Shown: positions 1 to 52,360 of the stretch, in pieces
Layout: the number at the start of each line of letters is the position of its first letter
Position numbering within the stretch: the first letter of the stretch is position 1
Position numbers and translations under genes: made by a program
Source: Girardia tigrina
Lineage: Eukaryota
Direction: 5' to 3'
Assembly (NCBI GenBank): GCA_001938485.1
Contig: MQRK01209551.1
Span: forward strand, 19,758-73,121
Length of the DNA stretch: 53,364 nucleotides
The notes under the pieces: model-generated
Databases searched by the model: none
Told to the model about the DNA's origin: nothing
What the model saw: the letters and a program-made list of their open reading frames with translations, nothing else

Positions 1-95
1 TTTTAAAAATCGAAACATGTCCAATAGTTGTATTAAAAAAGCTTTAATCAAATTATATTTTCGAAATACTAAACTTGCGTTCACAAGACTCAATA
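1..95 (+). ncRNA. 3' half of the same hammerhead motif family plus conserved downstream tail, truncated by the window edge
   Basis: atc-GAAA-CATG-TC-caata (9-26), then aaaaaagctttaatcaaattatattttcgaaatactaaact (near-identical to ~8571-8611), then (TA)n. Confidence 0.55.
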
Positions 96-349
96 ATATA
101 TATATATATATATATATAAGAAATTTCTTCTTGTCAAATAACTTATAATAAATGTAGAAAATTCAAATTTTATAAAAAAATAGCAATTTCAAATTACAAT
201 AATTAAAACATGTTACTTCAATATATTTAAACGTAAATATTAAAAATCAAAAATAAGTAAATTTAAAACAACATAAAAATGGAAATATTATGTGTTTTTC
301 AAATTCTCATAAATGAATAAAAAATTTAAAAAAATTAACTGCACCACTG

Positions 350-1140
350 CACAGTGGGCCAGAGACCGGTAAAACCTAAATAATGAAGTTAATAATTATA
401 CTCTAATATATGAATAAGACATTAGCTTTGATGTCAAATTATTTAAAACCAAAGATTTTATTCGCCGCCTTAGGCACAAGCTGACCGTTTTGATAAAACT
501 ATGTATAGGATATTTCCCTGGGACATCTTTCGGCAAATCATATTTTTTTTGAGAAAATGGGACATTAAAATAAATTAAAAATGAATATACATAATTTTAT
601 AAAATATACTATACTTTTTTTCAAAAAAAGTAATTTTGAGAATGTTAGATGTTTTTTGGAACATCTTCCACGCTATCAATATTAGAAGCCGACATCCGTT
701 TTTCACATTTTATTTCTCTACAAAAAAATGTCTAATACTTTTTATTCAAACAAATTTAATCGAAATTAAATTCATTTATTTTTTTTTACTTTTGAGGAAT
801 TATTTATTCCATAAATCTCAAACCGGTATTATAAAAATAAATATAGTATTAATAATCCATTTGACTTTTTGTAATTTCTGACAATTAAATAATTTTCATT
901 TACATTTACAAAATTTTATCATAGTTAATATAACTTTATTTAGTTCTTGATTTTTTTTGATTTGAAAATGATACTTTGAATTCAATTATTATTTCAAAAA
1001 TTTTCAAAACATTTCATAAAAAATTCTTAACAGAGAAGATTTCCGAAAATAATCCCAGCTAAAAATACGGTCATGGGCTTATTTTTGCGGGAATCCAGTA
1101 CTGTTTGTCAGAACTTTCTGGCAGCTAAAATCTGCACTAT
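350..1140. mobile_element. Degenerate non-autonomous TIR element, possibly Transib-like
   Basis: Begins CACAGTGGG at 350. Subterminal inverted similarity between tatttccctgggacatctttcggcaaatc (~511-539) and gatttccgaaaataatcccagctaaaaata (~1038-1067). The right end is uncertain. Confidence 0.35.
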
Positions 1141-2361
1141 ATTTAAAAGCACTTTTAAGGAGAGTAACCTTAATTGATTAGACCCATTCTCTTACTTATT
1201 AAATATGTATGTACTTTATGCTTTCATATATATGCATTTTATTAAATCCTTTTTAATAGGATTTACAATGAATTACTTATGTATCCTAAATATTCAGAAA
1301 AAATATAATCTTTTCATAAATTATGGTAATTAGTATTAAATCAATCCACATCAAGCCTTGATATTTAACACGATAAGGTTAACTGCGATCAAAATTGGGA
1401 AAGTGTTCACATAACTAAATGTTGCTATGTTGATTTTTGATTACCAGAGAAAGCGGTAGTCAATCCAATAGGCTCACGTTAAAGAGCATAGTTGAATTAG
1501 GGTGGGTGGTACCTCAGGTGGAATGATATACTTTACGGATTGGTAACCATTATTTTTGTCCATATAAACTAAATTCTGATCCACTATGCCCTGGATGAAC
1601 TTTTATACTCTTAACATGTTACTCATAACCCTCTTTCTTAATTAATTACAAATATATTCAATAACATACTTAAGATATATTTTCATGGAACGAGTAAAGA
1701 AACGAAAGAATTTTGATAAGGTGTACATATGATACAAATAAAATAATTCTGGAAAATCGAAAAACTGTGTATTTGCTCAAGATTTCGTTATTGAAAGCGT
1801 GATGTCGTTGTTTTAAGTCTTGCTTAACCAGAATATCTTTTACATTCGAGGAAATAGAGACTAATTGTGATTATATCATACCAATAAATCTTTCACTATG
1901 TTGCTCAAATAGTGGAAAATCAGCAGTGCAACAGTTGAGACGATAATCATAAATTTCACCAAAAAGAATTTTAAGAAAAAAATCGAATTCAAAGACTTTT
2001 AAGAATGGCAAATTTAGTAATTTTAAGACGTTACACGAGCTTGTTCCAATAAATTTTTCTCTTTGTTGATTATTTTAACAAATAATTTCTGTTTTCCTTC
2101 GCAAAACTCCAAGTCTCAATTCGATTGTAGATGTTCCCGTACGATAGACAACAAGTCCTAAAGGCCTCTGTAGTTGATCAGAAATGTCGGCACAGTAAAT
2201 CTTTCTGTGAAAAAAGACTTTTTTTCACAAAAAAAACACTGTGATAACACTTCTGTACTCAACCCCGGTAAAGTCATTTTATACTGAAAATGAGTTCAGT
2301 TATATCTCTAACTGTGTATGCATTATAAGTGTGTGTGTTCCACATCGTTGCATACGACGAC

Positions 2362-3163
2362 GACATATCCCCATAACAGCGAATCCCAAAATAGCGATTT
2401 ACTTTCCAAATAGAAAAAAAGTCAATTAAATATAAAATTTTATTTTAAGGAAATTCAAAATTTAAATACACTGTCAAAATGTAATTGGTATGCTTAAACT
2501 GAAAGAAATTCCACGAATAAACTCCTGCACACCGATTTCACCATTATCAAAACGAAGTTGCAAGTTTGAAATACGTTTAGTTATTAAATTATAATTTTTA
2601 TTCGTTTTGTTAATAACTTGCCCAGCATTAATTTGTGTCATCAATTATCTGTAAATCCTTGTTTTTTTATTATGATATTAAATCATAAATATTCGGGTGA
2701 TGCTTAACAACTAAATTATTGAAACGGTTGTGCCACCCTTAAACATCATTGTTAGAGCGTCGTCTGATGCCATACATATTCCACATTTCTTTTTTAATAT
2801 TTTGAAACCAGTGCTGGTGGAAGTACTGATATGAAGGTCTAATAAGTAGCGGTGTCTCGTTCCTCAGACTGTCGAAAGTTTGCTGAACAATTTGTTATGG
2901 AACAAACTCCAAAGCCATAAGCATACGTATTTTCGTTCTAAGTTCCTGATTATTACCATAATAATATATTTCTCCAATTTAAATGACAAAAATATAATTT
3001 TAAAATAAAAAATATCTTATTAATATAAATTTCTCCAATTTAAATGAGAAAAATGTAAATTTTAAAATGAAAATTTTCTTTCGCTTTTTGCGGAATTTGC
3101 AATTTTGATGAATCGCTGTTTTGAGAATTCGTGTTTTGGGAATCGCTGTTTTCGGGTATAACC
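2362..3163 (-). mobile_element. MULE/Mutator remnant with C-terminal transposase fragment
   Basis: Minus strand ~2930-2680 reads MLMALEFVP..YFHQHWF..MWNMYGIRRRSNNDV*GWHNRFNNLVVKHHPNIY (MULE RTNNxxEGWH/HPNI motif). Both ends carry inverted ~15-bp aaacagcgattccc-type subterminal repeats. Confidence 0.7.
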
Positions 3164-3638
3164 ACAACGACATATATACATGATAGGCATTGCCATCGTT
3201 GACACATTCATTTAGAGGATATTATAAAGTATTACCGACCGCACCACATATCAAGAGCAGCATGAATACTACTAAGACATTGCAATAAGAATTGTTTTCG
3301 AAAATTGCATTAACAATTTTAACGCTCCTTATATTTGATAAAGCAATGATCATTCAATTTTAGGTTGCTTAAATAAATTAGTTAGTTATTCAAATTTAAT
3401 TAACTTCAACTTTCTTTAATTCAGTTATAATTAAAATAGCCGTATGATTTGATATATCGATTAACAATTATGGTTAAGGGAGACATTACTCTAAAGCAAT
3501 TGCAACATACACAAAATACATGGTCATCCTGCTCAATTAAATTAAAAGTGTCTAATTAAAACAATTTTTCTTCTACCATGACTCATAATTTTTTCGATAT
3601 AATATACTAAGAGATAGAGAGTTCTTTTGTTATCTTAA

Positions 3639-4579
3639 TACGTTGACTACCGGAGACCCGTATATGGGTTTACTTTTGAATGAGAGGAATTTTTTAATGC
3701 GGTTTTTTTCAAAATATTGCTACTAACTTTTCTAGTCCAGCTCTCTCGCTCTCTAGTTCAACTCTATTCAATTTATTGCATCAGAACAAAACTGGAACAT
3801 GTGGAACAGTGAGAAAAAATCGTAAAGGATTGTCAAAATTCACTGGAAAATCAGGAAAAGGAGATGTTCAATGGTTTTCGTCTTCAGGTCTTCTAGCAAT
3901 GAAATGGAAAGACAAACGAGATGTCTACATGTTATCGACTGTAAATAGTACAAATTTCTTGAACAGTGGAAAAATTGATAGATCAAACGGAACAGAAATT
4001 ATGAAGCCCGCTCTAGTCGTGGAATATTCGCAAAAAATGGGAGCTGTTGATGAAACTGACATGCTGATACCATTCTCTGCTTCAATTAAGAACATTTTGC
4101 AGTGGTATAAAATACTGCAGAGAGAAATATACTTGGTAGACCTTCTAATGCTCCTACACCTTTGAGATTAGTTGCTCGTCACTTTCCCGACAATGTTCCA
4201 AAAGATCCAAAGAGTAGAGAACGAAGTAGAAGATATTGTATTGTTTGTAGTGCGAAACAAATTCGACAACGAAGTTACTTCATGTGCCTTGACTGTAATG
4301 TATCATTATGCGTATCAAATTGTTTCCGAATTTACCACACAAAGCTTCATTTTGATGAAGATGAGTGATCAAAAACAATTCCAATCAGTAAAATATAATA
4401 ATATTGCAATATTCATTAAAAACTCTTGTTTGTAGCTCAAGAAACTCATTCTTGTAACTCTTATGTAATAAATATTTCTAAGACTTTTTTTAAAAATTTT
4501 TCATTTTGAATTACTTGTGTTACGTCTAAAACTTCAATAAAATTAACATATCTCAAAAACAAATTCGGTAGTCAAAGGG
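3639..4579 (+). mobile_element. Internally deleted piggyBac element (PGBD4-like transposase C-terminus)
   Basis: TTAA at 3635-3638, then tacgttgactaccg ... cggtagtcaaaggg TIRs. ORFs CGTVRKNRKG, KWKDKRDVYMLST, KPALVVEYSQKMGAVD, and a C-terminal Cys-rich domain CIVC..CLDCNVSLCVSNCFRIYH. Confidence 0.88.
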
Positions 4580-5510: not shown

Positions 5511-26748
<21,238 letters not shown>

Positions 26749-29545: not shown

Positions 29546-29712
29546 TAATCGTAACATTAAAATTTAAAAATTATAAAAAATTTTATTTTCTTTTCGAAGC
29601 AGAGTTATTTAACCAATTCTTCAACTTTCTTCTTCTTTCAGTAAATATAACAAGTATGTAATCGACTTTTCTTAATTTTACAAACTGATTTGCCGAAATT
29701 AATGTTTATATA

Positions 29713-30061: not shown

Positions 30062-30323
30062 TATTTAATGAAATATAAAATAAAATCCTCATTTAACAAA
30101 TGTTTATTAACAAAAGTATTTTTGTGTTCCATTTATGCTATTTAATTAATGGTGTATTTCATGGGATAAACGGAATTTATATAACTCAGACTTTAGCGTT
30201 TTTCGTGGAACACCTGGTAGCTACATTCAATAAGACTGAGTCTGAAAAACTTTTGAAAATCCGTTTCAAAGAAATAATTTATTATCAAAAAATCATTGTA
30301 ATATTTCAAAGAATTTTCCAGTT

Positions 30324-33300
30324 TTACTTGTTTCTTGAAACTTTCGTCGGTTTTGTATCAGAACCAACAAGCAAGTCAATCATTTGAAGGGTTCTGCGAA
30401 GTCGTTCATGTAACTCGACTGGAACACCGAATTTCTTAAGATTTGTGAGAGAAAATGTTTTGAATCGTTTCTTTTCATCAATAAAGGACACGGCTCCCAT
30501 CACAGGACAAATAATTAATTTTGAGTGATCATTCATAAAATTTATCTTAATGAAAAATAAATAAATTAAAAAATTATGTAACATTATAAAACAGGTTGTT
30601 TTAAAAAAACTAATTAATTATTTGCACTTAATTCATTAAGTTGCGACTATGTTTAATATTGTTCCCATCCCTTGGATCTGGATATCGGATACGTCTTTAA
30701 AATTGCGTCAATTCCCTTTGTAGATTTGGACAAGAAACATCATTTTTTTATCTTTAAGTAAAAGAGACGATATGAAGATACTAAAAGGACACTTGGTTTA
30801 AAGTACAAGACAAATCCTTCACTTTATCAGAACTGTTAAATGATGCTAAATTTCAAATGTAACTTATAATAGAGAAATAAATCTTTTGAGTCATACGTTA
30901 ATAATTAATGTATCAGATAATAAATTTTATTTTCTTATAATATGTAGAGAAAATAATAATAATGAAGAACATTTTGAAATTGGTGTGCTAAGATTCATAA
31001 AAAATAGCTTATATCGGTAATCGAAAACGTTTTTTAATCCTGTTGAATTTTCTTGAGCGACGATTATCCATTAACAATACGTGTAATAGGTTCAATATTA
31101 CTGAGATAAATGAGATTTGGAAGTCTCACCAATGTCCCTGGCGTTACACTCATTTCAAGTATATTTGTATTTGAGATTTGAACACTCACATATAAATCCA
31201 ATGGTTTACAAATATACACATCTAATGAGTGTTACATAACATACATTGAATAGACTTTCCATCATCTCTGCAATATTGATGAATAAAATAAAAATTGTAA
31301 AAAGAAAGTAGAAGAAAGAGATTTTAAAATTCTGTACAATTTATTAAAAAAATATTGGTAAAGGACAGAGGTGGTTAACTCGGGGCCCGCGAGATTCATC
31401 ACACTTTTAGAAAATATATTTTTACAAATTTGATAAATCTGGCACTAAATGTTGTTAGCTCTTTTGGTTCAACTTACACCTGCGAATCGTTCGAAAATGA
31501 AAATGTCTAAACACAAAACACTGTGAAACATAGCGGACGCTAACATTCAAACCCAATTACGATGTGCAAATACCCAAATAAAAATCAATTTGCAAGGGCT
31601 AAGTTGAAAAATGGAGAAACAAATATCACAATAGTAAAATAAATATGTTTTAATGACTTCCTTTTTTTTATTTTTTTATATTTATGTATTTGCGTTTATT
31701 ATCTGTATTATTATATAATCTATGTTAATGTGTATGAATATTAGTAAACAAAATAAAAATAAATTATTATATTTCATTTTCTAACTCCAAAAATATCTAT
31801 AGTAGGTTAAAATCTTATATATTCATTTTAAATGCGGCCCGCAGAGTTATGATAGTTTTCCAAAGTGGTCCGAGAGATCATTTAAGTTAGCCACTTTTGG
31901 TAAAGGGTGACGTGCGAGGCCTTATAAGTAATTTTTGTTGATCCGAAATTCATATTCAAACTTACGCCGAACTTTCCAACTAAGTATTTCCTAAAAGAAC
32001 TTGTCGACATTATTGATTAAATATCGATTTCTTTATTACATTTTCTTTTGTATAAATTTTTGTTTTTAACGATTGGGGATATTTTTTTATTCGTCAGAAA
32101 TCATAACGTAAATTATGAGATTGTACGCTAAATTGTGATCTTTCGTTACATGGTTTGTATTTAATAAATATTTTTGAATCCAAGACTTACCTGTGTTATT
32201 CCATTGCTCAGATGCAAAATAATACAATTTTTATCCCTGAACCAGGATTTGAGGAATGGCAATCTGATGAGGGACTCTTCTTCTGTATTCTTTTTCGGAT
32301 CTCCGGTCTTTAGAAAACATATTTTATTAAATTTTCATTAATTAGTATATTTTTATACCGTTGATAAATTTTCTGTCATGTAACGTTGAAAGTTTTGAAA
32401 TAACTCTATCGTTTTGTTCAATGTTTGAGGGTAGTTGTCAATTGTATGAAGACTCTCAATTCCTTTCACGTCAATGAACTGTAAATTCTGGTTGTTTCTG
32501 GTTGATATCATGTAAGTGTTGTCTTTGAATATTACCCCCGTTGAGCCATCATTCAGTTGGTACCCAAAACCAAATCTTTCAGCGTCGACCCATTTAGCAA
32601 TCCAAAAAACTGGAGACAAAAATACGTCTTCCGTTTTCTCCATCAAATCTCTCATAAATTCCGCTGTTTGAGTTTGTGTTACAATAATATTTATATCAGC
32701 CATCAAGTTATTAATTTGTTTGGATAAATCTCTCAAATAGTAATTATTAACTTCCTTTTCAGTCTTTCTTTTTTGACTACTAAGTACAGGTTTTGGGGGG
32801 ACGAACTCATTAATCGTGGACAGATAAATTGCCGTTTCATTAGTCAGGATGTTCTCGGGAAGATTATCAAATCTCGGAACCAAATCTAATACCGAAGTCG
32901 GCAAAGACTCTGGGGTATATTCTTTGAAAAATTTCATTGTTAACAAGTTCTTCATGGTCGGCCTGGATGAGGGATTTTTATGAAGAAGAGATCGTATGAC
33001 TTGTTTGGCAGAGTCAGTGATGTTGTTCGGGATCAGGTATTCAACTTTCTTTATTTGAGAATAAACTTCACTAGTCTGACTTCCACAGAAAGGAAAATTT
33101 CCCGTAAGTAAGGCATATCTAAATACATAAATTATTGAAAAAGACAAATATTTAATTCTTTTTACAAAGCCACTCCAAGAGACCATACATCAGCATCAAA
33201 ACTATAAGGCTTCTTAAGGATGACCTCCGGGGAAACATAATTTGGTGTTCCACAGATTGTTTTCCTTTTGTCCTTGCTATCTTTCAACTGAACTGCCAGT

Positions 33301-33873
33301 CCAAAATCTCCAAGCTTCACAACCATCTTTTCATTAAGAAATATATTATCCAATTTCAGGTCCCGATGGATGATGTTAAGATCATGAATATAGATACAAG
33401 CGCTGATTATTTGTTTAGTAAAGTATCTCGTTTCCGGTTCCGTTAGATGCTTCCTACGTTTAATCAACCCTCTCAAAGTCTAAAAAATAATTAAAAAATT
33501 TATTTTAAAAATAATAATTATTATTACTTGTTTCTTACATAACTCTAAAATTAAATAAAAACATTGTGCATCTTCAAAGTTTTCATAAAATTTAACAATA
33601 TTTTCGTGATTTAATTTTTTATGAATTATTATTTCCTCTTTTAACAGATTTTGATAATTCGGATCGAGATTTGTTTTAACAATTTTTTTAACAGCGAATT
33701 TTTGTTTGGCTCTGTTAGAAACTTCATAGCATCTTGCGAACCCCCCCTGACAAGTATAATTAAAAATAAAATAATATTATTCATCATTCATAAATTACTC
33801 TAGCAATATATTCTCCAATGGCATATGTCTCCTTGGTCGAAGGATTCACAATATTATCAAAACTTTCAAACAT
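30324..33873 (-). CDS. PLK1: Polo-like kinase 1 (kinase domain + two polo boxes), ~568 aa. Exons: 33873-33799, 33746-33528, 33479-33166, 33118-32359, 32307-32191, 30545-30324
   Basis: Kinase motifs GGFARCYE, HRDLKLDN, KLGDFG, T-loop KTICGTPNY. PB1 FWIAKWVD..GFGYQL; PB2 LPFLKSWFR..LHLSNG..Q|INFMNDHSKLIICP. All five introns are GT-AG and phase-consistent. Confidence 0.93.
31366..31899 (+). mobile_element. Non-autonomous hAT (Charlie/SPIN-like) element in PLK1 intron 5
   Basis: cagaggtggttaact..agttagccacttttg TIRs; 8-bp TSD gtaaagga/gtaaaggg; gcggcccgc motifs; residual SSFGSTYTCES..QLRC hAT dimerisation motif. Confidence 0.85.
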
Positions 33874-36800: not shown

Positions 36801-38644
36801 ATCGAAATAAGCAATCGAATCTCAAATAACCGGTCAAAAGTTTTTGAGTAATACTAAATATTTTGAGATTCTACCGGAATCCTACAGTTAGACCACTCTA
36901 AAAAGTATACCAAAATACTCCAATGAAGCGTTCGGTCATTTTTGTATTTGAAAAACTCAATCTAACAACTAGTTCGAGTTGGCAAACTTTAGAAATCGGT
37001 ACAGTTCTATCCATTATGAAACCACATTTCAAGTGAGGCTGCGATCTGAGAAAAACCGTGGAATTTTACTCAATAAAAATTTTAGTTTTTCTTTGTCCGC
37101 AGTTTTCCCCCGTAGAAGCAATGAAAACATAAGTGGTTTTTAAGATAGTATTCTTTATATTTTTTTCTTGTCACATTATTTTATTTTTTTTTAATTACAC
37201 ATGGATTAATTGTAATTTGGAGATAATTTGAATACAGAGTCTTTTTTAAAAGGCCAATTTATAATTTCTGAGTTTGTTTTGTCTAAAATAAAAAATTAAA
37301 TATAATATATGATTTTCTGTAAAGGAACTCATGAAATAATTTAATGTGTTGTTTAAAGAAAATATTTCCGATATGATAGTCATTTAATTATAATTTATTA
37401 ATTAAATAATTTAATTATCTACATATCACACTGCTGCCTTATGGAAGATTGAGTTAAGGTGATTATGGCAACGGTTGACAGTTGTATCTGCACGGCAGCC
37501 ATAAGCCAAGTAAATAGTGCAATTGTGAGCAAACATGGAAGCCACATTCACAAACTTTTCAAACGCTCTATATTTCACATATTGTGTTTTACACTTTCTT
37601 TCAGCATGTGCTAAAATATATGCTTCAAAGTAGTCATTAATATTTTCTACTTACCATTTTACATTCACTTTCTGTGCTTGTACCATTTCATAGTATTTTG
37701 AAAAGTGCTGATAGTGGATTTTTCTGTTGCGAAAGAGCCAATGTGTGTATTTGTGATTGAGTCTTCTATTATAACAGCGAAGTTTAAATCTTCTGTTGTT
37801 GCAAAAGCGTCTGGTTATGATCACAAAAAATAGAAAGAATTATAAATATTTTATTAACATTTTATTGACTTTGGAGGTTTTACTGTGACTTTTTTGATGT
37901 TTCTTAATGACAGGTTGGAGAATGTCTTATCAATAGAGATGCATAGAACTGCTGCTCGTAATTAGTAATTGCTTACTAATTTGGGTTTTTCATTCCAAAT
38001 GAGCCAGAGTTACGATGATACAGTCCGTGATAATTAAATTTGTAAACCAAATAGGTTGTCTGTTCACAAACTCTTTTCGATTAGTTTAAGATGATTCTTT
38101 GTAATTTGGAATTGATTAAAACCACTTTAACACTAAATATTTCTATACATCCTCTTATTAAATATTGAAAAAATCCCTTTAGAATATTATCTTTAAAGGA
38201 TTTGTTTGTGCACTTCAATACTTTCTTACTTTAAAACTATTTTAACCCGTATCTATGCATATTATTTGTTCAGTGTTATCCTTAGTTATGCATTATATGC
38301 TTCTTTGTTTTCCTTTTGTTCCTCAAGCGTCCCAAAAAATATTCAAACAATTAGATGGGATTTAAAAATCAGAAGACAGATTTCAAAATTTTTGGACTAT
38401 ACCTCTCTCTTTATTTTTCATCACAATAGATCTTTGATATTGTATAAAGTAAAGGTTGTGTAGTAAGAGTACAACCTTAACAAAATGGTTTTGATTACAA
38501 GATACAGTTCTGTGCAGCACTGTTGATAAGAAACAATCCAATCAATTATTAATTAACATTCGAAATAGGCAAAGTAAAGCACTCCAATCGATTAAAGATT
38601 AACAAATTTGACCAATAAAATTCTGATTAATCTGTATTATTGTA

Positions 38645-38690
38645 TAATTGCTGATGATGAAATAAGAAAGTTCATCGGAACATGTCCCAT
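38645..38690 (+). ncRNA. Degenerate hammerhead motif (same family as 8498-8539)
   Basis: attg-CTGATGA-t-gaaataagaaagttcatc-GGAA-CATG-TC; core GAAA mutated to GGAA. Confidence 0.5.
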
Positions 38691-38862
38691 GATCGATCAT
38701 ATTTTCACAAATGCTTTAATTAATTAATAAATAATAATGTGATGAATAATAGTAAACTAACAATCTTTGTATATAAATATATCAAAAACAGTGAGACAGT
38801 AAGATCGATATGTATATATTTACGCAATAAAATACAAAATAAATCCTTTTTATTGGTTATTT

Positions 38863-41800
38863 TTATGTTTTCTTTCCTCCTTTTTTCTTTTTCTTCGACC
38901 CAGGAGCTAGTTTGCAAATATTGTCATACATATCTTGATTCAATAGATGACACATTCGAACTCCAATTTGAGGAAATTTATTAGCTTTTCTCTCAAGCAA
39001 TCCCTCCAGTATTAGCCGGGCAGCCATATCACTTACGTCACTTCCATAAAGATCAATTTCTTCCAAATCTTTACATGAAATAATCAATCTAACAAGAATA
39101 TTACAAAACAATTGCTAGGAAATATAAGCCACACCTTTTTATTTGCTGCATCGCAATCATGGGTGTAAAGGTTTCCCAGAGTCCATATCGGCCAATTTTA
39201 TTATTTGCCAGATTTAGTTTGCATATTTCCGGTCCAGGTAAAAGCATTACTTGTTTTGTTACTTTTGGTTTTTTCTTCTTTTCTGATATCTTTAAAGGTA
39301 AAAAAGTAGACCCGAATAATAAAAAATACTTTTAGGTTTTTCAACTACAACCGGTTCTGATTCCGGAGAAGTACCATCAGGATTGAGAACAGGTTCAGTT
39401 GGAACTATTTCTAGTAATTCTAAAAAGAAATTTATTTTATAATGACAAATATTTTGGATCAATTAAAACCAGTTTGTTTAAAATATCAAAACACAATATT
39501 TTCTAAACAGTGATATTATTAAGATATCTAATTTTTCCAATCTTTTTAAAATCTTTGATAATTTTAAATCGATTTTTGTTTAAATAAAAAAATTCATAAA
39601 TCAGATTTCAGATAAAATAATATCGTTAATCTATTCAAAATTTTGTATTCATACAAAGTGAATCAGTGATTTTAAATCATGAGTGACAAAGTTCGCTCTG
39701 ATTGGTTGACCAATGAGAGCGAGTCAATCGATTCAAATTACAATCATTACCCACATACAATGCCATCCTGATAATGATAGTAGGTAATAATGAATCCTCA
39801 AAATATCGAGACAAAGAAGAAAAAATTAATTAATTATTTAAATTTAATTATTATTTTTTTAATATTAATTTAAACTATTTCACATATTATTATATATAAA
39901 AAGCTAGCAGCAATTCAGCAATGAACAGAAATAGAAATAATTTAAAAAATATAAATAAGAATTTTTGCGTATCTTTCGCAATCAGCGCGTATACACAAAT
40001 AAATGAACTACGCCCTTTTTATGAAGCTGAAAAATTCTGTAAGAAACCACATTCCATAACACAACATGCGAGTCCCATCACGTCACTGAGCATTTCTACC
40101 AGTTACAAATAATTGAATCTCGTGTTTAAATGCGAGTCACACTAAGTTATAAAAAATAAGTGGTACGATACCTCAAATACTTCTCCAAAAATGAATGTTC
40201 GTTAATTACGCACCAAATACAATACAGACTCCAAACAGAATTCAAAATTACTTACTAACTTCAGGTATTGAGAATTTCACTGCTGCAGCAGCAGCGGCGG
40301 CAGCAGCTGCAGCCTCTCTTTTGATGGCATCAGATATTTCTCCAACTAGAGCTATTACACCTTCATTCTGCAAAAAATTCTGTTCCAGAGATAATTCTCT
40401 AAAGACATTAATGTCATTTAAATATATTAATAATGAAAATAATGTATTATTAAAAGACAAATAATGCCTATGAATTTGAATTGTAATCGATTTGTGGTTA
40501 TGTCTGCAAATTAATCCCAGAGTATAATAAAGGGTGGACCAAAAGTAACTACACAATTTATTTAACTTATATTTTCTTTTCATTTTATTAAATTTAACAA
40601 ACAATAAAACAAAAATAAACTTTAAAAGTTATATTTTATTAATTTATCTTTTAAAGATTACATTATTTAGGTGTTTTCCATTTCCCGATTGACAAATTCT
40701 ANNNNNNNNNNNNNNNNNNNNNNNNNNNNNNNNNNNNNNNNNNNNNNNNNNNNATCTTATTTCCTCGGTTATAATTTTCTTTAGATCTGATATTGAACTT
40801 GGGTTTCTTTTGTATACACAGTCTTTTAGATAACCCCATAAGAAGAAATCAGGTGCGTTAAGATCTGGAGATCTTGGACGTCACTCAATGTTACCACATC
40901 TTGAAATAATTCTGTCACCAAAATTATCTCTTAGCAAATTCATAGTCTCATTTGCAGTGTGACATGTGACCCCGTCCTGTTGGAACCACATATCCGGTTT
41001 ATTTTTGATGAATAGTAAAACAATCTCTCTGATCATTTGACGATATCTTTTTTCCATTCACATTGATTTGGTAACCATCAGTATCTTCGAAAAAACAAGG
41101 CCCAATTATTGCTTCAGAAGTAATACCGCATCACACTGTGCATTTTTGGGGATTTGAAGTTCGTTCAATAACCTCCATGGGATTTTCTGAACCCCAGAAC
41201 CTCCAATTTTGCTTATTTATATACCCGTCCATCCAAAAGTGAGCCTCATCAGTCANNNNNNNNNNNNNNNNNNNNNNNNNNNNNNNNNNNNNNNNNNNNN
41301 NNNNNNNNNNNNNNNNNNNNNNNNNNNNNNNNNNNNNNNNNNGTTGAAGTTTTTGGCAGATCTGAATTTTGTAGGCTTTCATTTTCAGATCAATTTTTAA
41401 AATTCGCCTAAGAGATGTCCTCGAAATATTCAGATGACTCGAACGTTTTCTTGTCGATAATGTTGGTTTGAATTGAACATTTTCTTCTACGCGTTGGATA
41501 TTTTCTTCGGATCTCACAATCTTAGGACGCCCAAATCTTGACAAATCTACCACACATCCAGAAGTCAAAAATTTATTTAAAATATTTAAAATTGTTCTTC
41601 TCTCTGGAACATTTTTAGTTTTATAACGCTTTTGAAATTCGCACTGAACAGAAATAATTGAATTATTGAATTTTATTGAAGATTCGATCATAAAAATTCT
41701 TTGCCCCGTTGTGTATCTTGGCATGATAAAAATTCAAGGCCCATGGAATAAAATAATTTTAAAAATTTTAAACAAAAGTAAACCTGAAAAAAAATTTAAA

Positions 41801-44800
41801 CAGAATAAATTGTGTAGTTACTTTTGGCCCACCCTTTAGAAAGGAAAGTAATAGTAATATTACATCAACACATAAAAAGTTGCTAATTGGTAAAGTTGAG
41901 ATAAGTAATATATTTGGAGAAGATCATCCATGATAAAATATTTGATCCAGAAATCAAATGCCAAAATGTCTTCTTCTTCCTTAACTTTAATGAATATACT
42001 TTTATGATTTAGATGTGTACAATGATTTCATGAAAATCACTTTGCTTAATAAATGCTTACATGAATCATTGTCAGTTTTGTCTGATGATTGTGGTTAATC
42101 CGTCGAAGTCAAGGATTATCGAACTGGATGGGCCTTATTTGTCTTTAATAAATTGATAAATATTTAATTAGAATATTAATACAGAACTCAAAAATCCTTT
42201 GTCCATAATATTGGAAAATATTCAAGAATAACAGTTCATAATGAAAGAAGAGTGGGGCCATAAATGGATAAGAGAGAAGTCGATCAAATGGACATATGGT
42301 GTTATTGATTGGGAAAATATGCCATAATTAAAAGGAGTGGTTTCAGTAACAATCGCAACTTATGGGGAAGTAACACAGGTTCCACTTGACTCATGTTAAT
42401 ACCAAACTTAAAATTTGCATTTGAGAAATAGACATTATTTTGATATTTAATACATATTTAATAATTCATTTAAAAAATCATAAATAATTTAGACGAGTTA
42501 AAAATTGTAAGGATGAAACAAACAAACATTCATATTACTTTTTTTCTTAAAAGCAAGACAGTTTATGTCTGTATTAGGAGGTTGTAAAAAGAAATCACTA
42601 AAACAACATAATACGTTTATTAGATCATTTTGTGAGACAATGTTTGAAATTCTCTTTTTGGGTTTGAAAAAATACCACAAGTTTCAAGGGAAATAACGAA
42701 AGCGAGTCTCAAGAGACAGATTTTAAAAGATATGAATTAGGGAAGAGAGATATCTGTGACGTAAATACGGAGACAAACAACTCTCATCTCATTGCTTGTA
42801 CAACCCCGAATGAATAATTTGGTGACTACATTATGTCCTTAACAATGTTCCATGATGAAAGTATAATATTTTTTTCCGGATGTCATTAGAATAGCCCAAA
42901 GAAATCTTTCGCAAGGGCAAGCTAACCTAGAATCTTACGCAAAGTATTTCGCTTTTTAAAAATGGATAAAACCCTTCTCTCCAAGGAGTCATCATCTTTA
43001 AGAGTCATCATCTATAAAGAGAAAATTCATTTTTTATGTCGAAAATTCCGCATTAAAATAAAAGCAATTGAATCAAGTAAATCAATTGATTCCAAATTTG
43101 TACAAGTAAATTAAATTATCCTTAAAATTACACAAATACATAAATTAATCGCAGGATCATTTTATCAACTTGATCCAAAAATAAAATATAAATTATTAAC
43201 AACATCAATATGAGGTTTACAACATTTATTAATATCACAAGCGCATTCACTGATTGACATCTCTCTTGATCAATATATTTCTGAGTTCAAACTAATTATT
43301 TTCAATAAATGAAAATCTGTTAATAAAAATTATTAATTATAAAGAATCTAATTGGTTGAAATTAAATCTAANNNNNNNNNNNNNNNNNNNNNNNNNNNNN
43401 NNNNNNNNNNNNNNNNNNNNNNNNNNNNTCAAAAATTATTTTAAATCTTTTTACTTTAAAATTAAATTAAATTATTTTTAATTAGTAAGAATCAAAGAAA
43501 ATATCAATCATCCATCTGTGTAGGAGAGGCACAATCCGAAACAACATATAACATGCACAATATCAACACGCAATTCAAAACATTCCTCACACAAATATCA
43601 ATTAATCTAGTTTTATTCTGAAAAAGGCTGCATAACTTTTACTACTAGTACATTTAGTGCTAGACAAAACATCAAATGGACAATCCATAGAATGTTTTGC
43701 TCATATGAAATTTTGCTGGGACTAAATGTCATACCACTGGAGAACTAAGGGGCTCAAGAAGAACGTCTTATCTAAGAAAAGGTTTTGGAATACTTTCCAT
43801 ACTGCAATAACTTAAAGAGAATTTTAATATTGATATAAGATATAAGACTATTTTATAAGTTTTAAGACTTTTTACATAAGGATAACATATTAGGTCTTGT
43901 ATTTTTTATTTTTAAAATGAAAAGTTTTTCCACTTTTTGATGAAGAATATTGTTCAATATGATTACGTCTGGATCTATAGCGATAATTGAAATGTCAAAA
44001 TAATCTAAAGGGTACGGATATTGCTGGGTATTTGAATGTTTCGATCATGGTGTGATTCAACTTTCTCTGTTTATTTTTTGATTCAATAAAACCTTTACCA
44101 GCGACAATAAACATCCTTTCAGTTTGGCGTAAACATGTAAAGCCAGATATTTTCCACGTCATCTTGCTTCTTGGGTATACCATGTTAAATCAGATATTTC
44201 CGAGTTAGAATATCATTCTTCGACTGAGACATACTCCCAATTTAAAGCATTGTTCCTTCAACTGATCTACCTTCGACGAGAGTATGACTTTAGAGTCATA
44301 TCTCAAGCAATTTACGTGTTACGCATTTAAAATTTATTATCGTCTACTTGTACAGCAAACATTATCCATTAAAATACTAAACCTGATTGAACCACATCAA
44401 TTTCACGCCATCTATCATCAGTTGTAAGCATTGGTCCTTAGTAATCGCGTACTTGACATAGATCCCATATCGTCTTAAATCAAAGAATGAAAATTAAATT
44501 TAATTGAAATTGTAAATTAGTCAATAATCGATGAAGAGCTTGTACACACTTTACTGCAACGGGGAATACAATGAAACTGGAGGTTGTTAGATAGATGGAA
44601 GAATAGCCACATATACCTCAAGGCCGCATCTCAATTGAATTCAATGTAAACAGAATGATGAAGAGTCTAAAATACAATATTCTAAACTATGTTGGTGAAG
44701 ACCGGCACAAAGAATTTTGTGATGTTATGTTAAAAAATTAAGAGAAACCTGAACAAAAAGAAAATATAACTTTTCCGATGAAGCCACCGTTCATTTTTCT

Positions 44801-47800
44801 GGCCATATGAACAGACATGGTCTTCATTGTTACGCTGAAGAAAACCCTCATGTTGATTATGAAAAGTCAGCCAAGCATTAAAATTTGGGCAATGATTGAT
44901 TCAAAATGAATATGCGGTGTACACATCACTTTACTCTCCCTATTCGGAACATATTTGAAAACCCATTGTTTGACCATATCTTCGTTATCCTCGAACAAAA
45001 TATATTCAACATGATGGAGCTCCATCAAATTAATTTTCGGCTTGTCACAATATTTTAGATGACATTGTCAAACTAATGGATTGGTAGGTGTGGGTCCTTT
45101 GTTGGATTTGATCGGAGACAGAAATTATTTAAGATTCTTTTAGAATTTGTTTTGTGACCCGAATTTTTATCAAAAAGAATTTTGGGACTTTTGCAGTGAT
45201 TTGATGTTATTATTTAATATTAATGTTACAAACTGAAGTTTGCCTCAGGCACAATTACCACTAATAATTATTAAATAATTTTTAAAATTATGCTTATTCA
45301 AAATTTTATAAAAATTTAATTTTCAAACGAAGATGATTACCGGATATTGCTCTTTGCGATGACCTCACCTAACATGAACCCGCTCTCTTTTCCCAGACAG
45401 CAAGCGTTCAGACTTAAAGTATACAAATACGTACTTTTCTTCAGTTCTTGACAAAGAATTTCACATCCTTCATCGCCAAATCTAGAATTGGAAGATCAGT
45501 TTAGATTACATGAGAAATTATTTGAACTCATTAAAGTCCAGCACAAGTTCTCTGAGAGTGGGACACTTGTTGATTGAGGGTGCCAAAATAGTAAGGCATT
45601 TGACATCAAGGAAACAGTCTATTAATTCTAGTTTTATAAAATTATATATCTTTCGATGCAGAAGATATGCCTTAATGAACAAAAAATAAATAAATTATTT
45701 GGTTTTGTAAATTTAACAAAAAATGAAATTAATTGTAAAATTAACAAATTTTATTTATTAAAATTAGCGTCTAGAAATTGCGACCATCAAAGATAATAAC
45801 ATATTTGATTCATAGTTTAATCTTGTGAGTAACATATGTACTCAGGTGATGCTATAGCTTTTGAATGATTACAAATTTAGTAACTATATGATTCTATACC
45901 TACAAAAAGTCAAGTCATTATAAAAAATAATTTCTTTGCTGAACATTGATACTTTGACAGCGACATATGAGAAAAAATTTTCTATCCAAACGTGTTTTTA
46001 TAAATATATTTCTACAACAAATTTTCTGTCCAAGCGAAAAGTAGGTATAACTAAAGCAGAAGTACAAACATTTTATTTATTTAATTAAGCACGGTATAAA
46101 GGTGTGATTGAATGCCTCTGATTGGTTGATATTTCTGTCCCATAATTATATAGCACATGCCATGTTTCATTTATTTCTCTTAAGAAAATAGCTCCACAAT
46201 TGACTGATTTTCAACAAAGTATTAAATCTCTTTTTAGGAAGGAAGAGCTTATCTGGGGAATTCTTCTTCAACTCTTGGAAACAGTTTGCATTGATATTAC
46301 AACTCTTGATGAACTTAAAAGTGCTTTGCCAATCGCATGGAAGAACATCGACATGAAAATAATTTTCAAGGCCAAAGCTTCCTGGATTCCACGTCTTCGA
46401 AAGTGTTGTAACAATGACGAAGGACATTTTGAACATCTCATAACAGCAAGCTTATTTATGTAAATATAATTGTTTGTACTTATCACGTGTTTAATTAAAT
46501 ACACTTTGGTTTCATAAAATCATTTCGTTTTCTACTGGGCACCCTGTAGTATGTCATATCAAAGTATGTATTGAAAAAGGTATCAGTCTGCTTTAAATGT
46601 AATATTATTTAAACAAATTATTTAAAGTTTTATTATAAAAGTTTATTTAAAACGTTTTTAATAATTTTTTTCTTAGATTAGTTCTAATTTAATTAATTTA
46701 ATTAACAGAATTTTCAAAAAAAACGCATCCGACTAAGAATATACACTAATTAAATTGTAAACTTGTGAACGATCTTCCGGAAGCAGTCACGGAGACTACC
46801 CCTATTGTTTTACAATGAATGCTATAAAATAATTGCGTCTGTATTCTTAACAATTATTATTATTAATATTATTATTATTATCATTATTATTGGATTTTCG
46901 AAACAATATCCTTAATGTTCTAACCATTCCTTCCACAGAAACAATAAGATTATTTTGTTAAACTAAAATAGACTCAAAATAGATTAAAAGGAATAAAAAC
47001 CGAAAAGACAATTTTACAAAATTTACCAAAAGAAACTTTAATTAATCGAAAAATCAACTTATCGTCAATTTATATTTTACTATAACGAATAATTTTTAGT
47101 TCCTTACCTGACTTTCTCAGAATTTATTTACTGAATCACTTAATGAGAGTGTCGAAAGGAATATAAGTAAAACGTATAATAAATCGTTGCTATGGTACTT
47201 ATTCTATAGACAATTAATTGATGATATTTGAGTGAGTGTGCAAAATAAATCATTCCTCATCGCCGAATGCAAGGGACGCATTTGCAGCTTGGATATACGC
47301 GAGTCGCACGTCCATTGAAGTATGCCTCTGTGGGATGTAGAGCAAGTCCCTTCGACTCTCAAACAGAATAAAATCAAAATTACCTATGTACAAAAATTGC
47401 AAGTTTATTTCCCTCTGTTGGGAAATTCACGACAGCCTAATGAGAAATCAAACAATGAATATTTTCTTTAAACAGTCAAAAATTACAAAAAATTCTATTT
47501 GTACAACTCGAACGAGAAATATATTTTTTTTGAGAAAATATTTTTTTATCGTTGTATTTCAATTTGAGTAACGTGAGACGCCTATTTACGTTGACATGAA
47601 TCAGAAGGCTCTAAAGAGGGGTCCGCGGAGACATGGGAAGCAGGCGAATCATTGTGTATTAAAAAGGGAAACGCCCAAAAATAAGTAAATACATTAAAAT
47701 TATTCTTTTACAATAATTTATAAATAAATTAAATTAAAAATTTCCCATGTTTTCTAACATTCAATTTTTGATCCTGTCACTGCGCAATACTATGTGACAA

Positions 47801-50800
47801 TTTATGTACTGCGGGTTCATCCGGGTTGAGCAGTCTAAAAAATGTTATACACTTATGTAGACTTTTTGTTTATGTTGAACAGGAAAATTCTTGTTGAGCA
47901 GGATATTAATTTAAAACATGTCTTATAAATAAACGTTCCGAGCATTTGGGACAAATTTGTTTTACATTTATGTATGTGTTGAGCAGTGAAAGGGTTACGT
48001 TTTATTTAACGATAGTTTCTTATGTGTCTTTTGATCGAAGAGGAGCACCAATATCCTAAAAAGCATAAAAATCCTACCAAAGGTGATACAGAAAATTGCC
48101 ATTGGCTGCTCAGTATCAAACGTAAGATACTCAGCATCACAATGGTTGCATCACAGAGATGGTGTGATTCTTCAAGGCACAAAAAGAAAAAGAAAAATAG
48201 TGGTCGAAGAAATAGAGGAGTCTCATGAATCAATGATCATGATGGAAGAGATTGAATATGAGCATGTGGAACCTCAGGTCACCGAGGACTTTGATCCAGC
48301 CGCCCTGAATGTACTCTTACTATCATACAAGAGTCGAAGGGACTTGCTCTACATCCCACAAAGGCATACTTCAATGGACGTGCGACTCGCGTATATCCAA
48401 CCTCCAAATGCGTCCCTTACATTCGGCAATTTTGCACACTCCCACAAACATCATCAATTAATTATCTATAGAATAAGTAGCATAGCAACGATTTAGTATT
48501 CGTTTTACTTATATTCCTTTCGACACTCTCATTAAGAGGATAAAGTCCAAGGCCACGAATCATCCTAAGACGAAGAAGCATCTTTCCCATATAACAGGCG
48601 GGTTGGAGACTCGTCTGAGGATGAAAACAACTCATCATTGGAGGAAGATTTATCTTCTGATAGTGAAAGTGTGGGGCATGGTGGAAACGATCACCCAATT
48701 GAAGGGTGCCGGGGGAGACCACGAGTAAATAACCCCTGTGAAAACAAGGGCACATGTTGACGACGGCTTCGGACCGAAACATGGTGCGAATACATTCATG
48801 TACAAGCCGGGCTTTTTTGCTCACTGACAAAAAAAATATTTACATATTATTTAAAGACAGTTTCTTATGCGTCTATTGATCTTATTCTAGTATATTAATA
48901 AGTTTAAACCCAATTAAAATAATTAAACAGAAGTATTCGAACAAAATTCCACTAACAATCCTTTAAGTATTATAAGTATTGCCCTAATATAAATCAATTT
49001 TTATCTCTCTCTTTAACACATGAAGAAACTGATGGTAGCAGAGATATTGTGGCAGCATAATAAAAGTTTTAATAATCGGACATGAAGTGAGAAATTCTAG
49101 AATCGGAAATTGTAGTGAAATAAACGGGTTTGCATTTGTCTTCAAATTGTTCTTTGATCTTGTGCCACAGATATGTTAATTGAACTTTCGTATAAAAATC
49201 ACTATTCCAATTCGTTTCTTGAGAAATTTACTAATTAATTAACACTAAATATTTGCTATTATTTTTTAGTGAACGAATTCAAAATATTTTTATTAGAACT
49301 AATTAATATCATTTAAATATTAAAAATGGTACACATTTTAAATGATAATAAAGGATTGCAACGTGCTCGCCATTTAAAAATAAATATATCCGTTCCAAAA
49401 TTGTTAGAAATATTATTTCAAACTAAATCGAAATTTTCATTTGGGCCTAACTTAAACCCTTGCACACAATTATACACAAACCTTATGGCTTGGTTTTCGC
49501 ATTTTTTGAGCGTTTTAGTATGCAAGCAACCTTGAGGCATCTATCTTCTCTCAATGTATGAATGGCCGTTGGCTCCAAGGAGCTCATCCGTCCTTTGTCA
49601 GGTTTTGTTTTTCATCCTGTTGGGTGTCAACACACCCTCTTCACGCATGTAGTTCTGGGTGAGGGAGCCGATTGATTTGCAAACCATCTGACCATTTGAC
49701 AGCTAGTACAGGTTTACATGGTATCTGCTGCAGACATGCTTGCCTGACCTTACCTGAATAGTCAATGGCCCTGCAAATTCCCAATAAGTCACCTAAATAA
49801 GTATTAACGCGGTCGTTGTGTGCTTAATTTCGGAGATAAAATAAATCAAAATTTTTCGGTTCAATTCAAAATACGAAACTTCAATCAATAAAATAATATT
49901 TTCAATTAAAATTACGGATTGTTTCTGCAAAGGTTATTTTCCCGTATAATTCGTGATGACACCGTAAAACGAACGCCATTAATAACTCCCGGAATAAAAA
50001 TGGATTTGATTTTTAATTGTATCAAATTAATATTGACACAAAATTCCGAGTCCCAACATGTTTTAGTAAACATTTACCGAAACATTAATCGAGCAAAAGC
50101 AACATCGATTTCGAGGGATGGGTTGTTTACTTTTTATCTATTTGCTGGGGTTTGAAATATTTTCTATTAGTTTGGATTTATTTCGAGAAATTATATCAAT
50201 AATACTTGCCCTCTTCCGGTTGAATCCATGGATGTTTTCAAGTTTAGTGGTGTCGAAAAGGTAACCTGTGCCCCTCAAAAATGATTCTAAAGAGAGGATA
50301 TGAAATTTGTGTCTTTAGTTTTTATTTAAGAGGGTGAAATTGGACATGTCATTAAAATTTTGCAGGAAACTGTTTGAATATGTAATGAAGAATAATTTTA
50401 AACAATCAAATGGTTTGTTACAGCTATGGAAGGAAAGCGATAACATAATTTTTCAGTCGATTAAAAATGGAAATGTATCATCACTGTTGGAAGACAATAT
50501 TCCACACTAAAATATATTTGAATAAAACTAAAATACCTACCAGAGTATATTACAAAGATAAATCGTTTATATTACAAATAAAAGAAGAATCAAGTGTAAA
50601 CTCTGCTCTCAACCATGTAATAGTTGTGTAATACAAGTTTTGAAAATTACTAATTTTTTTGATTATGTAATATTTTATTTAATTAATTATAATTTAATTT
50701 TGTAATATATCACAATCACAATTTGAAAACATCCTCAGTCCTCTAATAGCGTTTTAAAACAACAAAAATGCATGGATCACCGTAAGTATATAGAAGGTGT

Positions 50801-51932
50801 GAGTAATTTTTGGCAAGCAGCTTCAGTTGCAAAGACGATAGATTTATATTTTAAAGATAATTCTACAAATTATTAGACATCTAAATGACTAAAACCGAAG
50901 ATGTTATTTACCTCCAATTATGTTTTGCTTGATCGAGCTATCAGATCAAGATCATATCAAGAATACATGGACCAACTACCAACAGTTACTTCTTTAAAAG
51001 TAGCTTATTGTTATTGAAAGCTGAAAATTATTAATCGATATCGTAAAGTTAGTAAATGATACATCTTCTGAAGAATGCTTAGACTAAAGAAAAACTTGAA
51101 AATTCCAAAACCAATTTTGTAAAGCAGAGTGAATGACGATGATTTCCATAAATAATTTTTGTGATGAAAATCTTAAATGAAATGACGATTATCAGGATGA
51201 TGAACCCTGTAAAACCATCTAAAATGAAGCTATAGCAGACATTGTAACCCTACATGCATACTTTGAGGCTGAACTTGGAGAACATCTTCAAGAACTCTAC
51301 TCAGTTGAAAAGTGAGTGATGGAACATACTTTTTCTAGTCTATTGTAGTCCAAGATTTATTTATGGAATTATAAATCAAGTAATCAACATCCAAATTATT
51401 TCCGTACATTTCAATCTTATAATATTCTTTGTATTACCCATTGAAGATCAGATTTTTTAGAATTATTAAGCTAGGAAATTTAATAACCGCCCTATGACAA
51501 CCATGGCCGCTAATAGTTTAATATAGTACATGAATTATTACTTATTGTGATATTTTCGTGAGTTTTTCCAAATCAGTTCAATCCGAATGTAAGAGGAACC
51601 CGGGCGTAAGAAAATTTAAAACATTCCTGTTGAATTCTCTTACATTTGGATTCAACTAAATAAACTGAAATATAAAAGTAAATATTCTTGAAAAGTCTCA
51701 CCAATGCTCCTATTTCACCAGGTTCAATCATTGCTCCCCAGACCAACAATTCTTGAATATAAATATACCGAACAAGTTTTATAGACTCGAGCAGCGGTAA
51801 TATTCTCACCAAATTTGGAAGAATTTCTTTTTTACGTTTCTTCTTAGGTTTTTCTTCTTCGTTGAAAATATCAGGGAGCATTTCATCCTCCCAGAAATGC
51901 GTTACGGTACGATCTGCTGTGTCAACCATGAA
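38863..51932 (-). CDS. Uncharacterised RNI-like leucine-rich-repeat protein with Lys-rich patches (~372 aa from ATG 51929; possibly 5'-incomplete). Exons: 51932/51929-51702, 45670-45528, 45481-45341, 40398-40256, 39419-39330, 39282-39135, 39088-38863
   Basis: LRR units LELIDCFLD, LRELVLDFNE|FGDEGCEILC, LSLNACCLG, RELSLEQNFLQNEGV, KLNLANNKIG, LEEIDLYGSDVSDMAA. GT-AG joins keep frame, with 46-47 bp mini-introns. The exons at 45.3-45.7 kb and 39.1-39.4 kb are absent from the ORF track. Confidence 0.8.
40530..41836 (-). mobile_element. rosa-type (DD41D) Tc1/mariner element, full-length with gaps, transposase from 41724
   Basis: TA-flanked TIRs aagggtggaccaaaagtaactacacaatttatt / aataaattgtgtagttacttttggcccaccctt. 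TDEAHF; 41 codons between WFQQD and the D of SPDLNAPDFFLWG; in-frame stops. Confidence 0.9.
41850..42110 (+). mobile_element. PLE 3' end with hammerhead motif (42082-42108)
   Basis: KYFDPEIK-like segment and SSSSLTLMNILL*, then CTGATGA-t-tgtgg-ttaat-ccgtc-GAAG, homologous to the 16.9 kb motif. Confidence 0.55.
44500..45110 (+). mobile_element. Degenerate rosa/Tc1-like transposase remnant
   Basis: FSDEATVHFSGHMNRHGLHCYAEENPH and FQHDGAP motifs. Confidence 0.7.
46200..46546 (+). mobile_element. maT/Tc1-like 3' remnant
   Basis: LDELKSALPIAWKNIDM..WIPRLRKCCNNDEGHFEHL; ends gggcaccctg-TA at 46546. Confidence 0.75.
47139..48536. repeat. Pair of ~210-220-bp inverted repeats (47139-47359 and 48330-48536)
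   Basis: High-identity reverse-complement match; TTAA at both outer ends. Confidence 0.85.
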
Positions 51933-52160
51933 CTAGAACAACAATTTTCATTTAATCTTAGTTTAAATTTTCTCGCAGTTTTGATTGACTATTGTGCAAT
52001 TTATTAATCTCAGTAAATGTTGTAATTGGTGAAATGAACAATAAAGTTAATTTTAATAGTTTTTATGTTAAAATAAGGTATCTTACATTGCGCGGTAGAG
52101 ATATTTCTGTTGATAAGATTTAGGCAAATTTCGTCTTCAAAAAGTAATTGATAAAAAAAA

Positions 52161-52360
52161 TATTAAAAAGTGAACGCCATTTTTCACAATTTATTTTCGT
52201 AATTAATTTCGGCGCATTACCTTACATGATTGATTACATAATCACCTTTCTCATATATAAGCTTCAAAAAGCCAGTGTTAATTTAGTCTGAAGATGGCGG
52301 GTAATCTGCCGAAATTAATTACGAAAATAAATTGTGAAAAATGGCGTTCACTTTTTAATA
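52161..52360 (+). ncRNA. 53-bp perfect inverted repeat enclosing/overlapping a hammerhead motif (52288-52328)
   Basis: Arms 52161-52213 and 52308-52360; tttagt-CTGAAGA-t-GGCGG-gtaat-CTGCC-GAAA-TTAA-TT-acgaaa. Confidence 0.65.

Follow-up and report, generated by a model that had tools for sequence, protein, structure and literature searches.

Penelope-like elements (PLEs) of metazoans carry minimal type I hammerhead ribozymes in their pseudo-long terminal repeats (pLTRs). These have a short helix I, an extra nucleotide that separates position 9 from 10.1, a G10.1-C11.1 pair and a palindrome made up of 15.2-16.2 and loop 3, and they occur in many families, mostly as solo copies (PMC4209133), all of which also holds for the motifs described here. 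A planarian motif listed in the supplement to that work shares the core, the extra U and the UA-rich palindrome. The role of the PLE hammerhead has been stated as unclear (PMC8557442). These and the other publications compared below are cited from those portions of their text that were available. The subject of this analysis is a 53,364-nt stretch of Girardia tigrina DNA (the window), for which a preliminary description had listed nine hammerhead-like strings. All nine are present, and they are named here by core position (12-21, 6341, 7609, 8535, 10690, 16917, 38651, 42082 and 52288). With a probability of roughly 0.8, eight of the nine are pLTR ends of PLEs with the minimal, dimer-type hammerhead, which in the source element would lie directly behind a likely promoter, overlap the start codon and act, through cleavage, as an off-switch for the mRNA. 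The phenomenon is already known from the published dimer-type PLE hammerhead, and the window itself is ordinary. What is new relative to passages of earlier work is the overlap with AUG in three families, in one of them likely through the helix III palindrome.

Eight sites align to PLE termini from four families; the case for 10690 is weak. Family A (loop 3 TATA, helix I GAC/GTC) includes 7609 (81% identity, helix II and the GAAA region broken) and 16917 (core kept, helix I gone), and family B (loop TTAA, 2-bp helix I) includes 52288 (99% identity). Family C (loop CATG, helix I ATTG/CAAT) includes 12-21, which is 100% identical over 100 nt to a genomic relative (L362), 8535 (96% identity, G10.1 changed to C) and, more distantly, 38651, a decayed copy (nhmmer E 2e-5) with GAAA changed to GGAA. 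Family D (loop TTAA or TTGA) includes 6341 and 42082 (the latter at 76% identity). The only complete motif in the window is 52288; 12-21 is cut by a gap, and the remaining sites carry lesions. The bases right before window position 1 are N, and the 5' half of the 12-21 hammerhead was lost in this assembly gap. The full core (CUGANGA, GAAA, U-H, the extra nucleotide and G10.1-C11.1) is found in 52288 and in the families, and is incomplete in the copies at 6341, 7609, 8535, 10690, 38651 and 42082.

The termini are joined to ORFs (open reading frames) with reverse transcriptase (RT) and GIY-YIG domains, which bears out their earlier description as PLE-type minimal type I hammerheads. In family A, RVT_1 (E 1.6e-8) and GIY-YIG (E 4.3e-5) lie in one ORF (L023), and the RT/GIY-YIG frame ends about 80 nt before the hammerhead core. 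A family C fragment (L061) has no Pfam match, but does match by tblastn. Genome-wide, an RT query returned 31,817 first-look candidates. Read from the element sequences, a DKG motif is present, the endonuclease has CCHH, and there is no extra Zn linker. Partial tandems and head-to-head inverted junctions occur among the copies, and the 3' ends of copies, read by eye, cluster near +68 and +100 from the AUG, about 31 nt apart; a two-end tail signature has been described for PLEs (PMC8557442, PMC11167929). Thus, a single ORF with RT and C-terminal GIY-YIG, pLTRs arising from partial tandems, an inverted 5' copy and a tail are all found in these elements. Long "open frames" on some scaffolds proved to be N gaps.

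At least four of the window sites had been placed just downstream of a GIY-YIG C-terminus, and this holds for 6341, 7609, 16917 (last codons only), 38651 and 42082 (at the DNA level); GIY-YIG C-terminal sequence is absent upstream of 8535 and 52288. Further GIY-YIG PLE remnants with no recognisable hammerhead downstream lie at 53250-53029 (-), 29372-29271 (-), 31110-31367 (both strands), 31889-31954 (+) and 6506-6637 (+). Eight of the window motifs were likely left by truncated or inverted PLE insertions, and inverted pairs of termini occur at 8.5, 16.9 and 52.2 kb. At the last of these, an inverted half copy lies 78 nt upstream of 52288; in read-through RNA, its predicted pairing with 52300-52360 gives a long hairpin that would bury the 3' half of the motif (the 221-nt stretch around both has a predicted fold of -95.6 kcal/mol). 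Cleavage is predicted to require a pair of hammerheads, and all but one of the eight window motifs are broken or cut off by the gap, so that they are likely functionless at these loci.

An exact pattern, CTGAHGATG-N9-16-CGAAA-N4-TH, was searched in the 1.43-Gb assembly with the reversed pattern as control. This genome-wide search with a minimal type I pattern gave 40,030 matches against 17 in the control, about 28 per Mb, a count that is inflated because some contigs are duplicated (near-identical duplicates such as C156101/C156102 and C136017-C136019 raise the copy number). With 2 exact matches against an expectation of 1.5 (P=0.44), the window shows no enrichment and is no hotspot. The proposal that two or three families had saturated the region is not supported: the window has four families or more, a genome sample has 22 clusters, and the density is average. 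In a sample of 90 loci spanning the first 95 of 100 matches listed (contig order), with 94 distinct motifs, loop 3 is a four-base palindrome in 82 (CATG 30, TATA 20, TTAA 18, CGCG 10, CTAG 4), and helix II has at least five pairs in 69 (five pairs in 45, six in 18, seven in 6). A second set of 196 motifs, enriched for families A-C by targeted searches, formed 25 clusters, which were pooled to 22. A deleted family A hammerhead fragment and a nearly intact one stand in tandem about 95 nt apart (L002:1281-1420, L232). Family C termini are often abutted by (TA)n (e.g. L057, L064, L065, and 85-118 and 8403-8460 in the window), which suggests a target preference for (TA)n that is not seen in families A and B.

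Hammerhead positions are numbered in the conventional way, and the spacing of TATA box and initiator referred to below is likewise general knowledge. Covariation was assessed on the majority lines of the 22 clusters, anchored on the core, with 10,000 column shuffles; the G10.1-C11.1 pair was fixed by the search pattern. Helix I is paired at positions 1-3 in 19/22, 20/22 and 14/22 clusters, above shuffles, and at position 4 in 9/22, which is the chance level. Pairing also exceeds shuffles in helix II (positions 2-4 in 21/22, 20/22 and 20/22 clusters) and in the two pairs of loop 3 (20/22 and 22/22), so that helices I-III covary across the 22 clusters, with relatedness uncorrected. An alignment of 28 rows, six of them window copies, has 86.8% of its cells paired, compared with 63% when shuffled and 28-48% when slid; two-sided change is seen in 9 of its 11 pairs, a number not above shuffles (143/500). 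The helix III of the preliminary description is palindromic as claimed, although its limits were set one base too far out at either side. The true helices are A-TATA-T and A-TTAA-T; of the bases added outside them, the A is A14 of the core and the T is U17 at the cleavage site. Similarly, helix II does stay paired, but the two forms put forward as its variation, GGCGG/CCGTC and GGCGG/CTGCC, are one-sided G-U changes from the family majority forms GACGG/CCGTC and GGCGG/CCGCC. The true compensatory change is between families. By predicted energies, a dimer fold is 12-20 kcal/mol better than two monomer hammerhead folds, and this modelling suggests that dimers may form.

The AUG of families A and B consists of core A9, the "extra" U and G10.1, and the ORF opens there. 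Thirty family A loci have the N-terminal region, and seven of these have a core just upstream, with the core AUG in the ORF frame in six and frameshifted in one. Over the stretch read, frames from the family A core AUG contain no stop in L248 and L251, and single stops in L246, L247, L258 and L266. The core AUG of a family B locus (L075) reads into the homologous protein, as does the window copy at 52288 until the end of its tail. Family C is arranged differently: its core AUG opens a 13-codon frame only, and the frame of the ORF starts with the CAUG of the helix III palindrome, 5 nt ahead of the cut (L344 and L366, the latter spanning N runs). Judged from these frames, the start codon of family C is likely the helix III CAUG. 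The predicted cut lies 27 nt past the AUG for families A and B, and 5 nt past it for family C. At the extra nucleotide, 40,030 motifs have U and 1,119 have A, C or G; the exceptions listed look like point mutants of the same families.

The family C core CUGAUGAUGAUG (e.g. L060:1029-1078 (-)) has three same-frame AUGs, with a short frame that overlaps the likely true start out of frame; this short frame could damp translation. In clusters F9 and F12 (L086:859-903 (-), L125:1493-1537 (-)) the core AUG frame closes at once, as read by eye, and the start codon may be the loop II AUG instead.

Upstream of the core, a strict TATAWAWR is located at -41 to -30 in most copies of 9 of the 22 clusters and in no cluster for 14 other 12-nt intervals; with the looser TATAWA the figures are 12 of 22 clusters and at most 1 in control intervals. 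Genome-wide, TATAWA-N24-34-CTGAHGATG is matched 35,017 times, with some matches counted twice, against 441 for the control. At 28-34 nt beyond the TATA box, 3-7 nt before the core, there is an initiator-like TCAGT, TTAGT or TCAC. From this spacing, the pLTR is likely a promoter, with transcription starting on the 5' strand of helix I, 3-6 nt before the core. The copy at 52288 has the whole arrangement: a TATA box at 52254-52261, an initiator-like A at 52285, AUG at 52294-52296, helix II, GAAA-TTAA-TT and a predicted cut after 52320. An intron acceptor at TACAG in family A was also considered, and found no support.

We propose that the pLTR of the source element would act as a promoter, with a TATA box and an initiator-like motif that would place the RNA start 3-6 nt before the core. 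The ORF opens inside the ribozyme, in families A and B at the core AUG and in family C likely at the CAUG of helix III. A strand swap between two motifs via the 6-nt palindrome would follow, likely aided by the protein of the element; the anole element described below suggests that such assistance may occur. As the AUG is in the core and the promoter just upstream, cleavage would take both cap and start codon off the mRNA, and for this reason the hammerhead is read as an off-switch of the mRNA rather than as a step in insertion. New copies run on past the cut site to end 70-100 nt downstream of the AUG, which makes the uncut RNA the likely template for insertion. A wider generalisation is offered tentatively: across many PLE families the hammerhead might be a cap-proximal translational off-switch, with transcription starting on helix I, the extra U kept as a letter of the start codon, protein-assisted dimer cleavage removing cap and AUG and so giving a copy-number-sensitive negative feedback, and the lock between AUG and ribozyme persisting when the AUG moves into the helix III palindrome.

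Several observations weigh against this reading. The clusters are not independent trials, because they are related. The dimer fold never beats twice the best alternative monomer fold in six of six cases (one equal, five worse), and helix I of family B has only 2 bp. There is no strict TATA box in families C and F7, and only a near match in family A, and the predicted leader of 9-12 nt is very short for initiation. Lastly, the identity of 10690 as a PLE terminus is uncertain: there is no family match at the DNA level, and a genome search with it returned merely a flanking repeat end. A weak GIY-YIG remnant does lie about 110 nt upstream in the right register (5.9 bits, best reversed control 4.0). 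A PLE RT remnant is also present upstream of 10690, at 11311-11626 (-), with a mariner-like piece in between.

The marginal stability of the predicted folds is also what would be seen if the fold were a protein-binding or structural signal over the start codon that seldom cuts in vivo, the most probable of the alternatives, although still a doubtful one. It would fit the low in vitro activity of the anole element and the lack of RNA-seq reads ending at its cut site in the text available (PMC11167929), and hammerhead-free PLE clades are known to proliferate (PMC8557442). However, helix I has been retained along with the palindrome and the U-H triplet in clusters whose flanks are unrelated, as cleavage requires, and the anole motif does cut in the presence of protein.

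If cleavage at both pLTRs freed a unit-length or circular RNA as the insertion template, as in the model of Cervera and de la Pena, genomic copies might bear its trace. The same palindrome is present at both ends of a tandem unit, and one of the 30 ORF-bearing copies (L250) starts about at the cut site. A recurrent in-frame deletion of 15 nt, present in 101 copies compared with 2,963 intact and on several subfamily backgrounds, can be aligned so that it begins exactly at the cut site. However, slippage suffices for this deletion because it lies between 9-nt direct repeats, and is a simpler explanation than a cleavage scar. The 82 family A copies that break off a short way upstream of the cut, chosen by a changed CG dinucleotide 10-11 nt upstream of it, show no pile-up at the cut, and most keep 6-9 upstream bases (by eye). 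Copies have their 3' ends 40-75 nt beyond the cut, and core mutants of the anole element left insertion unchanged in vitro (PMC11167929). Template release by cleavage is thus unlikely, and the off-switch remains the preferred role. Of 24 public sequencing runs, all available as contigs, which cannot show RNA ends, none contains half of the sequence words looked for; in the 4 that were aligned, depth over the termini tracks terminus copy number, and no clear GT-AG joint was listed.

Decay of the window copies had been attributed to their position in a host gene. The five copies at 6.3, 7.6, 8.5, 10.7 and 16.9 kb were said to be sense to the TTC12 pre-mRNA. Four of these (6341, 7609, 8535 and 10690) are indeed in introns of a minus-strand gene, in sense orientation, and 16917 likely belongs with them, as it lies between the mapped exons and a TPR exon. 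The name TTC12 is not confirmed: a search for homologs of the TPR exon gave generic TPR proteins only, and Pfam left the ARM-like exons unnamed. TPR and ARM-like exons together do fit the architecture of TTC12. Host selection against copies sense in the introns would account for the fact that all five are lesioned, including the otherwise young 8535 and 16917. However, the counts of lesion-free copies, 0/5 in sense and 2/4 among the others (taking the gap-cut 12-21 as intact), do not differ significantly (Fisher p=0.17), and sense position is not upheld as the explanation of the decay. The old sense copies 6341 and 7609 are decayed along their entire length (81-82% identity), the deletion in 16917 recurs genome-wide, and 38651 and 42082, which are outside the host gene, are equally broken (70-76% identity for broken copies there). 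Disabling by host selection is therefore improbable.

CTGANGA heptamers occur 35 times in the window, so that a bare heptamer (e.g. 6341, 10690) requires outside evidence. A type I descriptor with palindromic loop 3, at three stringencies, found 1, 2 and 3 sites, compared with means of 0, 0.03 and 0.13 in 30 block-wise dinucleotide shuffles of the window. The strict form found 52288 alone, one helix II mismatch added 8535, and waiving helix I added 16917. With one core mismatch allowed there were 4 matches against 1.2 per shuffle, not clearly above chance, and the two extra sites gained at the loosest setting are taken as chance matches. None of the 5 matches at E up to 5 from a scan of the window with Rfam covariance models is a hammerhead, which likely reflects the near absence of helix III. 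Despite these heptamer, descriptor and Rfam results, an origin of the motifs as chance matches in AT-rich DNA has almost no probability and is refuted for the eight sites by their alignment to repeat families with intact motifs and by the genome counts, chance being plausible for 10690 alone.

Features of the window are listed below. Other content includes an AAA ATPase frame of 226 codons at 22004-22684 (-), with AAA, AAA_lid_3 and Vps4_C and only the C-terminal part in frame, which is presumably p97/VCP-like, and Polo-like kinase frames at 32353-33749 (-) with Pkinase and POLO_box. There are also many remnants of DNA transposons, with DDE and mariner-type frames and terminal inverted repeats.

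Table. Coordinates of PLE termini, host gene exons and other repeats in the window.
Feature	Position	Strand	Details
Family C PLE terminus	1..98	+	Hammerhead 3' half (GAAA 12-15, CATG 16-19, predicted cut after 21) and tail into (TA)n
Old family D terminus	6290..6485	-	GIY-YIG frame end, TATA box and core 6341, with deletion of helix II
Old family A 3' end	7528..7997	-	GIY-YIG remnant 7997-7690, decayed hammerhead, core at 7609
Family C terminus	8438..8549	-	Core 8535, helix I ATTG/CAAT, loop CATG, end in (TA)n
Inverted partial copy of family C tail	8560..8612	+	Coreless
Uncertain site	10660..10895	-	Weak GIY-YIG-like remnant, followed downstream by CTGATGA at 10690; neither pairing nor family match
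Inverted family A pLTR	16852..17020	-	Core 16917; 15-16 nt deletion from cleavage site onward (helix I 3' strand lost)
Rearranged, broken family A body	17026..19110	+	RT pieces, endonuclease missing; head-to-head with inverted pLTR
Inverted RT/endonuclease remnant	37910-38464	-	Beside 38651
Old family C-like 3' end	38481..38690	+	GIY-YIG C-terminus and decayed hammerhead, core 38651
Old family D terminus	41975..42110	+	Core 42082, several substitutions
Inverted half copy of family B terminus	52146..52221	-	GAAA side and tail
Family B terminus	52222..52390	+	Sole complete motif, core 52288, tail
Host gene, ARM-like	5512..15045	-	Exons 15045-14848, 9018-8794, 6071-5856, 5805-5512; four consecutive exons mapped with homolog P0035
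TPR exon	19932-20300		Likely same host gene
DNA-transposon remnants	3698-4368, 9412-10600, 13551-14500, 21118-21802, 22909-23872, 40528-41838, 47139-48536		

Many host introns contain such motifs, and the 40,030 copies found here (28 per Mb, inflated) compare with about 9,000 at most in the available text of PMC4209133, whose main text, in the same portions, makes no mention of AUG, start codon or TATA. A literature search, mostly of open-access sources and in part of their text, found nothing joining start site, core and AUG, or Penelope, TATA box and hammerhead. A precedent for the start codon is PAc, a Poseidon element of the green anole (Frangieh et al. 2024, PMC11167929), in which the ORF opens where stem II begins and the cut is 26 nt after the start codon, compared with 27 here. 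PAc also has two RT start sites that give rise to a tail, and RT followed by GIY-YIG. It differs in being one element tested in vitro, its promoter not mapped, whereas the present comparison covers three families from sequence alone. The Penelope of Adineta vaga (Arkhipova et al. 2013, PMC3846280) has a pLTR with a putative TATA box and initiator, the first 12 ORF codons and a 31-bp tail, as well as an inverted pLTR, all as in G. tigrina; unlike here, promoter and start codon were not related to the ribozyme in the text available, and TATA box and initiator are 20 bp apart. In Drosophila virilis Penelope (Schostak et al. 2008, PMC2377424), promoter and start site are likewise in the pLTR, helix III is small and palindromic, and helix I has 2 bp. 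However, that promoter is internal and TATA-less, and a 75-bp intron precedes the ribozyme, whereas the G. tigrina elements carry a TATA box and give no hint of an intron. Non-LTR retrozymes (PMC7229834; bioRxiv 10.64898/2026.07.22.740005) resemble the present motifs in being type I hammerheads of animal repeats that are related to PLE pLTRs, but consist of short non-coding tandem repeats. The window motifs are single termini joined to RT/endonuclease sequence, and not short head-to-tail hammerhead units that lack an ORF.

Each component thus has a precedent in the available portions of these works: the motif and the dimer model (PMC4209133), the AUG at stem II with protein-assisted cutting (PMC11167929), and the TATA box, initiator and first codons (PMC3846280). 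The modest value added here is a very high density, together with a promoter-core-AUG-cut geometry that extends across families. With about 40,000 copies in 20 or more families, and a fixed order of TATA box, likely start, core, AUG and cut, the role of the PLE hammerhead becomes testable.

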